The position numbers were made by a program, and so were the translations under genes. The notes beneath the pieces were generated by a model. The model saw only the letters and a list, made by a program, of their open reading frames with translations, searched no databases and was not told where the DNA came from. Of a stretch of DNA of 64,000 bases, positions 4,301-9,000 are shown in pieces. Each line of letters begins with the position of its first letter. The first letter of the stretch is position 1. The stretch is from NCBI GenBank assembly GCA_965371445.1, contig CBDUYN010000036.1, positions 100-64,099 of the forward strand, given 5' to 3'. The DNA comes from an uncultured bacterium (GTDB lineage Bacteria; Acidobacteriota; Thermoanaerobaculia; Multivoradales; J023).

Positions 4301-6058
4301 CTCCACGCCAAGGGCCTGGCGCACCCTCGACACCAGCCGGGTCGCGAGCAGGGAATGGCCGCCGAGCTCGTAGAAGTTGTCGTCCGGGCCCACCCTTTCG
4401 ACGCCGAGCACCTGGGTCCAGATGCCCGCCAGGAGCTCCTCCACCGGGCTGCAGGGCGGACCCTCCCCGGCCGGAGTCGACGGCACTGTCACCGGCCGCC
4501 GGCTGAGCGCCGCCCGGTCGACCTTGCCGTTCGGCGTCAGCGGCAGGGCCTCGAGGGGGATGAAGACCGCCGGCAACATGTAGTCCGGCAGGCTCCGGCC
4601 GAGGTGATCGCGTAGGGCGGCCGCGTCGAGATCGCCGGCGCCCTTCTTGCCGACCATGTACGCCACCATCCTGCGCTCTTCGGCGCCGGTCTCCGCCTCG
4701 GCGAGCACCACCGCCGCCTCGCGTACCGCTAGATGATGGCTGAGAGCCACCTCCACCTCGCCGAGCTCGATGCGGAAGCCGCGGATCTTCACCTGGTGGT
4801 CGATACGGTCGAGGAACTCGAGGTCGCCACCGGGCAGGTGGCGGACGAGGTCGCCGGTCTTGTACAGCCGCTCGCCGGGCTCGGTGGCGAAAGGATCGGG
4901 GACGAGCTTCTCCGCGGTCAACCCCGGCCGGTTGCGGTAGCCTCGGGCGAGGCCGACGCCGGCGACGTGGAGCTCCCCTTCGTCGCCGAACGGCACGGGC
5001 TCCAGGTCGGCCGCCAGGAGGTAGACCCGGGTATTGGCCAGGGGCCGGCCGATCGCCGGCGCGGCCTCATCCCCGGCCCTCTCGCCCACCGCCGGCTCGA
5101 CCGGCGTCCAGGTGGTCACCACGGTGCACTCCGTCGGCCCGTAGTGGTTGACGAGGGCGAAGGGCAGCGGCCGTTCGGGCCGCCGGTGCAGCCGGTCGCC
5201 GCCGGTCAGCAGAGCGCGCAGCGCGAGCCCAGGCGGCAGCGGCTCGGCGAGCACGGCCTCGGCGAGCGGCGTCGGCAGGAAGGAGAGGGTGATCCCCTCC
5301 TCCCCGAGCCACGGCAAGAGCCGCGCCGGATCGGCGACGACCTCCGGCGGTGGGATGTGGATCGCCGCGCCGGCGGTGAGATAAGGCCACAGCTCCCACA
5401 CGGCGGCGTCGAAGCCGGGACCGGCGAGTTGGGTCGCCCGGTCCGCGGCCGTCACGTCGTAGGTCCGCTGGTGCCAGGCCACCAGGTTGAGGAGGCCGGT
5501 GTGGGCGAGCTCGGTGCCCTTGGGACGGCCCGTCGAGCCCGAGGTGTAGATCACGTAGGCCAGGTTCTCGGGCCGCGTTTCGGCGAGCGGTCTTTTCGCG
5601 CTCCCCGGACGCAGCTCCCCGAGGTCCACGGAGACCACCCACGCGGCGAGCTTCCCGAGCCCTTGCCGCGGCGTCTCCCGGGTCAGGAGCACGGGAACGG
5701 CGGCGTCCTGGAGCATGAAGGCCAGCCGCTCGGGCGGCGACGCCGGATCGATCGGCAGGTAGGCACCGCCGGCTTTCAAGGCAGCGAGGATCGCCACCAC
5801 CATCTCCGGCGAACGCTCCATGAAGATGGCCACCGGGACGTCGGGGCCGACGCCCCCGGCCCGGAGATCCTCCGCCAGCCGATTCGCCAGGCGGTCGAGC
5901 TCACCGTAGCTCAGCAACTCACCGCGGGCGAGAACCGCCGGCGCTTCGGGGGTGAGGGCGGCCTGGGCCTCAAAGAGCTGATGCACACAGACGTTCTGAG
6001 GAAAAGGCGCCGTGGTGTCGTTCCACTCCACCAAGAGGTCCAAGGCTGTTTCGTTCAT
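1..6058 (-). CDS. Non-ribosomal peptide synthetase, truncated by the left window edge: A(Leu-like)-T-C-A(Val-like)-T-C(partial)
   Basis: Not in the ORF track because its stop lies left of position 1. My reverse-complement translation from ATG 6058 gives MNETALDLLVEWNDTTAPFPQNV... A core AYVIYTSGSTGRPKG at 5521-5560. NHYGPTECT at about 5110-5140. T motif DDNFYELGGHSLLATR at about 4350-4395. C motif TVHHIAFDGWS at about 3750-3790. Second A core AYVMFTSGSTGRPKG at 2281-2320. Second T at about 1100-1160. The second C domain continues to position 1. ATGA stop/start overlap with the upstream gene at 6055-6058. Confidence 0.9.
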   Translation of the reverse strand, partial: MNETALDLLVEWNDTTAPFPQNVCVHQLFEAQAALTPEAPAVLARGELLSYGELDRLANRLAEDLRAGGVGPDVPVAIFMERSPEMVVAILAALKAGGAYLPIDPASPPERLAFMLQDAAVPVLLTRETPRQGLGKLAAWVVSVDLGELRPGSAKRPLAETRPENLAYVIYTSGSTGRPKGTELAHTGLLNLVAWHQRTYDVTAADRATQLAGPGFDAAVWELWPYLTAGAAIHIPPPEVVADPARLLPWLGEEGITLSFLPTPLAEAVLAEPLPPGLALRALLTGGDRLHRRPERPLPFALVNHYGPTECTVVTTWTPVEPAVGERAGDEAAPAIGRPLANTRVYLLAADLEPVPFGDEGELHVAGVGLARGYRNRPGLTAEKLVPDPFATEPGERLYKTGDLVRHLPGGDLEFLDRIDHQVKIRGFRIELGEVEVALSHHLAVREAAVVLAEAETGAEERRMVAYMVGKKGAGDLDAAALRDHLGRSLPDYMLPAVFIPLEALPLTPNGKVDRAALSRRPVTVPSTPAGEGPPCSPVEELLAGIWTQVLGVERVGPDDNFYELGGHSLLATRLVSRVRQALGVELALPTVLEKATFADLATALAELSGATPSAATPPEPVSRELPLPLSFAQQRLWFLDRFEPGSALYNIPITLRLTGRLECATLARALNEIASRHEVLRTCFAALDEMPVQVIRPGPDLPLPLSDLAGLPPSRRRTEARRLVLEEARRPFDLARGPVLRTRLLRQSTTRHLLLLTVHHIAFDGWSLGVFLRELAALYRAFSAGAAARGTASPLPELGVQYADFAVWQRRWLEGEVLERQLAYWRQQLAGLPVLELPTDRPRPAVQSFRGAAEHFRLPPELSRGLEELGRRHGSTLFMTLLAAFQTLAALYTGQRDVAVGSPIANRNRAEIEGLIGFFVNTLVLRGDLGGDPTFAELSARVRATAVAAYVHQDLPFERLVEELEPERNLSHNPLVQVVFLLQNVAMAPPELAPGLAASFEYVYNGTAKFDLTVGLEEAEGGLRGDVEYNTDLFDGVTLRRLAGHYRTLLEGLVAAPERRLSELSLLSAAERHQVLPEWNDTAVTYPAEAPIHELFEARVAASPEAVAVVCENPAERGDGLLQEQVSYRELNRRANRLAHYLRAQGVGPEVCVALCLERSGEMVVGILGILKAGGAYVPLDLSYPPERLASMLEDAGSSLLLTQERLSERFAKVPIRRVCLDSEWSTISRHSPENPRAGATAENLAYVMFTSGSTGRPKGVSIIHRGVVRLVRGAGYAELGEQETFLQLAPISFDASTLEIWAAFLGGGRLVVFPPYTPSLQELGAVLERQEVTILWLTAGLFHQMVDENLEGLRGVRQLLAGGDVISARHVKRVLEELPGRTVINGYGPTENTTFTCCHPMGEPGAVEDPVSIGRPISSTRVSVLDRHLRQQGVGIPGELCIGGDGLARGYLKRPGLTAESFIPDPRGAGPGARLYRTGDVVRTLADGRIDFQGRRDHQVKVRGFRIELGEVEAVLGEHPAVRKVAVVVHQEVSGDQRLVAYVVAEGVGAAETELRDFLRPKLPGYMVPSAFVFLETLPLNPNGKVDRVALSRRPLPAAAPATAHGQAPGDPLEELLASIWARVLGVERVGVHDDFFELGGHSLLATQVVSRIHRELGVEAPLRIFFERSTVAALAEYVAAALRRVGPLETSPVRPAARRGRLPLSFAQQRLWFLDRFEPDSVLYNIPTALRLEGPLEAAALARALGEIVRRHEVLRTAYETVDGEAFQAISSALVLLLPVFDLQALPAAPRRAAAQRLAWAEAHQPFDLARGPVLRVRLLRLGVEEHVLLLTVHHIAFDGWSLGVFLRELAALYRAFSTGTAAPGTAPPLPELPVQYADFAVWQRQWLAGEVLESQLPYWREQLAGLPVLELPTDRPRPAVQSFRGATEHFRLPAELFLKLQELSRRHGSTLFMTLLAAFQTLAGRYTGQDDFAVGSPIANRNRAEIEGLVGFFVNTQVLRGDLRGDPTFGELSAR
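3232..4560 (-). repeat. Copy A of the roughly 3.23-kb intragenic module repeat (C and T part)
   Basis: See the partner feature at 1-1330. The antisense ORFs 206..1321 and 3200..4615 in the track also show near-parallel sequences. Confidence 0.8.

Positions 6059-9000: not shown

Follow-up and report, generated by a model that had tools for sequence, protein, structure and literature searches.

Gene H (6055-9900, minus strand) belongs to a long hybrid polyketide synthase (PKS)/nonribosomal peptide synthetase (NRPS) operon in a 64,000-nucleotide stretch of DNA (the window; positions 100-64099 of contig C36) from a genome of 10.6 Mb in 363 contigs. Its 1281-residue product has no complete elongation module of condensation (C), adenylation (A), and carrier (T) domains: neither a full A domain nor a T domain is present. 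Its parts are, in order, APH–TubC_N–C–adenylation relic–helix–thioesterase (TE). As far as can be judged from sequence, C–relic–helix(–TE) is a rare but conserved cassette of Thermoanaerobaculia NRPSs, in which it normally directly follows a T domain. We favor, with about even confidence, the reading that H is a release subunit docked to the last T domain of the preceding protein, G, and that the next gene, I, is the cut-off remainder of the assembly line.

Pfam recognizes four domains in H, all on the minus strand: an APH-type phosphotransferase domain (PF01636; 9049-9777, residues 42-284; 68.3 bits versus a cut-off of 23.2), a TubC_N-type docking domain (PF18563; 8680-8835, residues 356-407; 49.5 bits versus 26), a condensation domain (PF00668; 7270-8622, residues 427-877; 337 bits versus 30.6, E = 2e-100), and a thioesterase domain (PF00975; 6115-6849, residues 1018-1262; 93.6 bits versus 26.4, E = 2.8e-26). 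The condensation domain has an intact MHHIISDGWS motif. We modeled residues 421-1281 with AlphaFold2 from a 20-row alignment (mean predicted local distance difference test [pLDDT] 84.6). The C domain is modeled confidently, the solved structures closest to it in fold are those of Txo1/Txo2 C-A (42% identity), and Foldseek returned only standard C-domain and NRPS matches for the model. Pfam found no PP-binding (PF00550) and no AMP-binding (PF00501) domain in H. Residues 868-1017 gave no carrier or adenylation match at E ≤ 10 with Pfam or E ≤ 1 with NCBIfam, and no GG[HD]S carrier motif occurs within residues 881-1017. An earlier prediction, made from the sequence of the window, had described the C domain of H as ending in SERHQLLVEW and followed by a vestige of an A domain, a docking-like helix, a TE, and a stop; the sequence and Pfam agree. 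It had also named a carrier domain at residues 930-1000 as the finding that would speak against it, and the scans of this gap with Pfam and NCBIfam show none.

The head of H, an APH/homoserine-kinase-like domain fused N-terminal to TubC_N and C, is also found in two NRPS proteins from the same genome (locus L020 on contig C78, 1967-6781 and 6855-13778). Further relatives of this head occur in genomes G014, G017, and G033, with alignments that cover the head only.

The vestige is a true fragment of an adenylation domain, although it is visible by profile only. The C–A linker motif SERHQLLVEW (7261-7290, residues 871-880, minus strand) is followed by PARRAEQPRVMDASGRPVPIGVWGRRF...VRYLPDGRLES, an Ala/Pro-rich stretch, RRRRLSAAGRALLTDRLRG, the TE, and TGA. 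The relic itself is the 42 amino acids RVMDASGRPVPIGVWG...VRYLPDGRLES (7111-7236, residues 889-930, minus strand), and it matches the hairpin just before core A6 and the hairpin before core A8. Cores A1-A5, most of A6, and A8-A10 are gone, and so is the T domain. Pairwise tblastn with the mid-region of H gave no match past the linker. Among 1.84 billion representative proteins, this mid-region had four relatives at E ≤ 1e-3, and more were found in genomes. We searched 301 genomes of the class with a profile of seven mid-regions (alignment A1), which matched 50 of them, mostly over profile positions ~21-67. At 26 of 27 loci that we checked, one of which (L113) comes from the unpublished genome G044, the match lay within a complete A domain with the A3, A5, A7, and A8 motifs; the 27th is a head–TE protein. 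A pattern for an octapeptide of the relic had 36 six-frame matches in the genome that contains H, and 25 of these were accompanied by an A7 motif. The other 11, judged by reading, were eight A domains, two chance matches, and the relic of H. Furthermore, a relative (P0055) retains a longer remnant, with the A-domain stretches ERLVRDP and TGE..FLADGRLV. The cassettes with relic and helix are about 40-45% identical across families, with invariant P, I, G, G, R, D, G, and L in alignment A1, and AlphaFold2 predicts four short strands in the relic, in a block with pLDDT of 65-88. Elsewhere in the same genome, on the minus strand of contig C89, an A domain breaks off immediately behind PVPIGVIGELY and passes straight into a T domain, with A8-A10 missing.

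After the relic comes an Arg-rich helical segment (6913-7059, residues 948-996, minus strand) that contains RRRRLSAAGRALLTDRLRG (6952-7008, residues 965-983), a motif like those of the docking heads (LSPxKRxLL type) at the N termini of C-first proteins. The helix had been said to resemble the N-terminal heads of G and of a further NRPS protein, D. This is partly borne out: the helix profile matches the G head (KSDIARRMEKLSPAKRQLLLKKLAG) with an hhalign probability of 79% (E = 1.6e-5, 30 columns). The match to the D head is not significant (hhalign E = 0.16), and pairwise BLASTP of the helix gave nothing for either head. G and D each come after a PKS protein that ends in an acyl carrier protein (ACP) domain and an acidic tail of the DLESLLDELE type, and a stand-alone TE protein in genome G128 carries the same Arg-rich LS..Q.ML..RL helix at its N terminus. 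It seems reasonable to call the helix of H docking-like.

The nucleophile motif of the TE is GWCFGG, with Cys1089 (codon 6634-6636) instead of the usual serine, which is a known but rare variant. Columns G667/G671/G672, D695, and H825 of the TE alignment (A3) are near invariant, and the Asp and His positions are conserved. Cysteine is also found in L023 (GYCIGG) and in an unrelated match, P0009 (GWCFGG), while the TEs of G039, P0003, P0054, and contig C215 have serine.

The named relatives of proteins and loci in the window are Thermoanaerobaculia, in the phylum Acidobacteriota. We found the full form with relic and helix in 2 of the 301 genomes of the class, this one and G039, which belongs to another family of the same order. 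On contig C3 of G039 and in a close relative (P0003), a single protein ends in A-T-C-relic-helix-TE. A chromosome record of 8.8 Mb from Thermoanaerobaculaceae (L023) has C-A-T-C-A-T-C-relic-helix-TE, and P0054 has the same C-relic-helix-TE ending. In P0052, P0053, P0055, L129, and the metagenome contig L140, the stop codon comes directly after the helix (the gene after L129 encodes head–C–A), and in L130 C-relic-helix is fused to the next C-A. Contig C215 from the same genome as H encodes a T-C-helix-TE end without the relic. L021, L022, L024, L028, L080, and G033 show this first deletion too, but in the form C-relic-T, in which the T domain survives. Of 11 units built as C–(relic)–helix or as C–C, a T-domain motif occurs about 60 amino acids upstream of the C domain in 8, and HHxxxD is kept in 10. 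A linker-pattern search of genome contigs gave 78 loci, mostly ordinary C–A junctions and about ten of them informative, and a metagenome search with P0053 gave 15 loci: 14 ordinary C–A junctions and one new cassette (L140), the contig of P0053 itself not being among them. Our literature searches, which did not extend to subscription journals, turned up no report of a C–relic–helix(–TE) unit.

The block of relic, helix, and TE is thus no local accident: together with its C domain it forms a conserved cassette in other genomes. The original prediction was right that the TE of H lies in mid-operon. It had proposed to ask whether the TE is terminal in relatives and whether C-A is contiguous there. 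The TE is terminal in the relatives, with a gene for a HAD hydrolase next in L023 and one for a penicillin amidase next in C215; C-A is contiguous in the mapped paralogs from the same genome.

Some further arrangements at these loci may be worth recording. The penicillin-amidase gene (an N-terminal nucleophile, or Ntn, acylase) after the helix–TE end of C215 lies at 8283-10859 on the plus strand of L019, and by eye such a gene also comes after the stand-alone head–TE gene of G128 (L134). L130 (G039, contig C3, 214000-227000, minus strand) encodes a T domain, a sulfotransferase-like stretch, and C-relic-helix-C, and in a further C–C tandem of this locus the two domains are separated by hardly any linker. 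L132 encodes C–large relic–C, and its second C domain has a degenerate HRMTADRRS motif.

Gene I (2-6058, minus strand, running off the contig end) opens with MNETALDLLVEWNDT, and its domains by Pfam are A-T-C-A-T-C... At the junction (6055-6070, minus strand), a strong Shine-Dalgarno sequence, GGGAGGA (6064-6070), sits inside the last codons of H; after a 5-nt spacer comes the ATG of I (6056-6058), which overlaps the TGA of H (6055-6057). The claim that the next gene overlaps H by ATGA, opens at the linker, and continues into a full A-T is thus confirmed from the sequence and Pfam. The LLVEW of gene I is at 6023-6037, and from residue 7 onward the protein aligns with internal C–A junctions of other modules. 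A crude pattern scan of the genome for A-first proteins found none.

The two copies of LLVEW, which had been proposed as a recombination scar, are not one, since the motif is universal at C–A linkers. A linker like ERHQ-LL-x-EW ends all six C domains in the window (for example, HQVLPEWNDT, HQLLLEWNVT, and HQVLTEWNDT), and the linker pattern has more than 626 matching stretches, in cyanobacteria, myxobacteria, Planctomycetota, Chloroflexota, and others. The DNA of the two LLVEW sites shares the codons of the motif only (12 of 15 bases), and no direct DNA repeat joins the sites in H and I. The double LLVEW is neither chance nor the signature of a duplication.

That a contiguous C-A-T module was interrupted is nevertheless plausible, even though LLVEW is no scar and the block is no local accident. 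The two mapped paralogs on contig C78 continue from the head into A-T; one is APH–TubC_N–C–A–T, the other APH–TubC_N–C–A–T–C–A, and H joined to I would equal the latter. In G039, a gene begins 18 nt after the one with the cassette and TE. Its first domain is a C domain that opens only at Pfam position ~187 of 456, and the gene is cut off by the end of contig C3. Contig C1 begins with a C domain that takes up at the corresponding position and is followed by A-T-C. From this fit of the sequences, we infer that C3 joins C1 and that the successor is a half-C–A–T–C gene. In L140, a half-C open reading frame (5448-5873, plus strand) lies ~800 nt downstream of the cassette gene. It looks as if assembly lines were cut at different points by a release cassette, each cut leaving a truncated first module. 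Half-C gene starts downstream of cassette genes, at Pfam positions from about 187-206 of 456, were seen in L012 (1-669, minus strand) with L150 (1-6000, plus strand) and in L140. The identities of gene I are evidence neither for nor against common descent, as we read them: the best paralogs of its first A and T domains (A1-T1) are 44-50% identical, lie on several contigs, and are not specifically APH-linked modules, and the identity to the successor gene in G039 is 43%.

How might H work? Gene G (9939-17885, minus strand) encodes three condensation-family, two A, and two T stretches by Pfam, in an order that from their spacing is probably C-A-T-(C-like)-C-A-T. Its last PP-binding domain is at residues 2554-2617 of 2648, so that G ends in a T domain and an acidic tail, ...AAEEVEEFEI. 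Because H has no carrier domain, it cannot hold a substrate. Since G ends in a T domain with an acidic tail and H has a TubC_N domain, H most likely sits on G. Furthermore, the relatives in which everything is on one protein end in T-C-relic-helix-TE, and by analogy with this layout at the end of a line we read H as a release subunit. TubC_N of H would dock onto the acidic tail of G, the last T domain of G would present the finished chain, and the TE, with its cysteine nucleophile, would free the chain from that T domain. H would thus release the chain of the line encoded upstream, which runs from a fatty-acyl-AMP ligase (FAAL)/ACP start through PKS modules to G, and the C domain of H would be idle or non-elongating. 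As for its history, the cassette most likely descends from an ordinary C-A-T module in which A1-A5, A8-A10, and the T domain were lost. In this operon, the most likely course is that its relic–helix–TE part was placed behind an APH–dock–C head from which the protein formerly went on into A-T. This insertion would have cut the line, and gene I would have retained the linker, acquired a ribosome-binding site and an ATG of its own, and become a separate protein.

Several observations weigh against this reading. All of the cassette C domains keep the catalytic His motif and so look like working elongation domains rather than idle ones, and just four weak clade-specific columns set them apart from ordinary C domains. 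The origin of the C domain of H is left unsettled by our trees (quick trees plus approximately unbiased [AU] tests). The quick trees pair it with an ordinary C domain, P0054_1565 (support of 97 and 81 in the Shimodaira-Hasegawa-like approximate likelihood-ratio test, SH-aLRT), and group eight other cassette C domains together (SH-aLRT 93); its identity is 44-50% to ordinary C domains versus 40-45% to cassette C domains. The AU tests reject neither its grouping with the cassette C domains (p = 0.81 and 0.58) nor its grouping with the APH-linked C domains (p = 0.71). An A-first gene that overlaps by ATGA after a cassette was seen only in the window, and such an overlap fits functional coupling of H and I. 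Gene I is truncated by the contig end, so its own release domain is out of view. AlphaFold2 places two helices in the Arg-rich segment, with a low pLDDT of 38-65. We know of no experiment or structure in which a TE reaches a T domain across an intervening C domain that is supplied in trans. Finally, contigs from public reads (one run, 6% of sampled words) covered 5800-6001, 6535-7011, and short pieces, and did not bridge the C–relic and TE–I junctions.

The original prediction held that the C domain of H must work in trans with the A-T of the next protein. This does not follow, but trans coupling is a rival reading, if a rather unlikely one: the C domain would take the chain from the T domain of G and join it to the amino acid with which the first T domain of I is loaded, the line would go on through I, and the TE of H would be accessory or act later. 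The intact HHIISDG and the ordinary elongation-type sequence and fold would suit this, as would the opening of I exactly at the linker, with its ATG overlapping the stop of H, and the match of H plus I to the paralog. A-less or truncated-A modules that are served in trans are known, for example fimsbactin FbsE (PMC11661926). These modules keep their T domain, however, and H has none; the relic already fills, in cis, the position of the A domain in the polypeptide, and the TE fused after the C domain would have no role. We also see no evident docking pair between the C terminus of H and the N terminus of I. Although the C domain lacks A-T in cis and the next gene is A-T-first, as expected of a split C//A-T module, this adjacency is not conserved: none of the seven relatives with visible context (L023, C215, G039 contig C3, L129, L130, L131, and L140) has an A-first gene directly downstream of the cassette. 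A different proposal, which we consider unlikely, is that the C–relic–helix units of Thermoanaerobaculia make up a class of their own, conserved condensation units without a carrier. The two surviving A-domain hairpins and the helix would form an adaptor through which one upstream T domain serves this C domain and also the TE or C that comes next. The C domain would then be non-elongating (tailoring, or capturing a trans or soluble acceptor) before release by the Cys-TE, and in the window it would also couple the lines of G and I. Another reading, which seems to us quite unlikely, makes C–relic a non-elongating, carrier-less tailoring or adaptor domain that is placed like an epimerization (E) domain or the X domain of glycopeptide synthetases (T–X–TE), and that acts on the chain while the upstream T domain carries it, or brings a partner to it, before the TE or the next C takes over. 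In its favor, the unit lies directly after a T domain in those 8 of 11 cases, and a TE, a stop, or the next C comes after it; some residues of the relic are invariant across families, and the model predicts it to be ordered; a single clade of all cassette C domains is not rejected by the AU tests; and T–X–TE is a known layout (PMC10510592). On the other hand, the active site has no distinctive change, since HHxxxDG is intact, unlike in X domains; the diagnostic columns are few and weak; we identified no candidate partner enzyme, although no search of the window for P450 genes was made; and many modules in this lineage are plainly decayed, so that conservation may be inertia.

Decay could also be the whole story, with a line broken by rearrangement, a C domain and perhaps a TE that no longer function, and an original product that is no longer made. 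Other domain relics lie nearby (such as an acyltransferase [AT] fragment in gene D), the cut A domain of contig C89 is fused to a T domain, and of the C–C tandems in G039, one has a degenerate His motif. But no reading frame is interrupted in more than 50 kb, C and TE both retain their catalytic motifs, gene I has a good ribosome-binding site, and the cassette has been conserved across families, so we find this distinctly improbable. We give hardly any credence to an assembly artefact, in which a chimeric join in repeated NRPS sequence made a false gene without A and T. In its favor, the assembly is fragmented into 363 contigs, a contig end interrupts gene I, and the public contigs leave 7011-7274 and 6001-6535 unbridged. 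Against this, the same architecture occurs in independent assemblies, including the chromosome record L023 and the 3-contig genome G039, and a contig of another sample, 94% identical, spans the helix–TE junction (6535-7011).

The rest of the operon is also on the minus strand. All of its reading frames are open across more than 50 kb, and the GC content of the window is ~70%. The product of the first gene resembles a fatty-acyl-AMP ligase at its start and goes on with NRPS and PKS domains. Next come two PKS genes and gene D (21544-29157), which encodes C-A-T-ketosynthase (KS) and a fragment only of an AT domain (Pfam positions 65-134 of 319), a further domain relic within the cluster. Between D and G are genes for a flavin mononucleotide (FMN) oxidoreductase and a MacB/FtsX-type permease. 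The GC fraction dips to 0.62 at 8001-10000 of the window, in the APH–dock part of H, compared with 0.68-0.75 across most of the cluster.

In NRPS engineering, as in genome mining, modules are assumed to be C-A-T. A unit that is conserved, that has a catalytically intact C domain with a 40-amino-acid adenylation stub and a docking helix, and that lacks a carrier breaks this rule, and tools that predict products will mis-score it as a missing or an extra residue. If the unit works, then either a TE or downstream C domain reaches a carrier across an intervening C domain, or a C domain pairs with A-T on another protein. Either outcome would be useful for the design of split or truncated assembly lines. 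If the unit is only debris, then it documents how soil Acidobacteriota shorten and cut their assembly lines by recombination at the C–A linker.

Parts of H have counterparts in known systems. ObiF and SulM reportedly have cysteine-nucleophile TEs that form a beta-lactone or a beta-lactam from a T domain in cis. H is like them in having GxCxG for GxSxG in a terminal NRPS TE, but the beta-lactone and beta-lactam chemistry is that of ObiF and SulM. WS9326A is said to be made with an A-less or truncated-A module that is served in trans and retains its T domain. Similarly, fimsbactin FbsE has an A-less or truncated-A module that is loaded in trans and retains its T domain (PMC11661926). As in both of these, the A domain of H is missing or truncated and a neighboring A domain could serve; unlike them, H lacks a T domain altogether and has a TE in its place. 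The X domain of glycopeptide synthetases, in its T–X–TE layout, has a degenerate active site and recruits P450s (PMC10510592). H shares with T–X–TE a condensation-fold domain between the last carrier and the TE, without its own A or T domain, but it has an intact HHIISDG, its upstream T domain is on another protein, and a relic and helix follow the C domain.

The putative dock between G and H resembles other pairings of TubC_N (a beta-hairpin) with an acidic tail in that TubC_N of H stands in front of the C domain and the tail of G is acidic. It differs in that the dock of H is internal, behind a 340-amino-acid kinase-like domain, and G is its probable partner. Lastly, the C–A linker (with the WNATE motif) is the fusion point of exchange units in NRPS engineering, and natural recombination occurs near the borders of A domains. 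The boundary of the cassette lies right after ...LLVEW, at a linker site known to tolerate recombination, much as in exchange-unit fusions, although the piece in H is a relic–helix–TE block and not an A-T-C unit.

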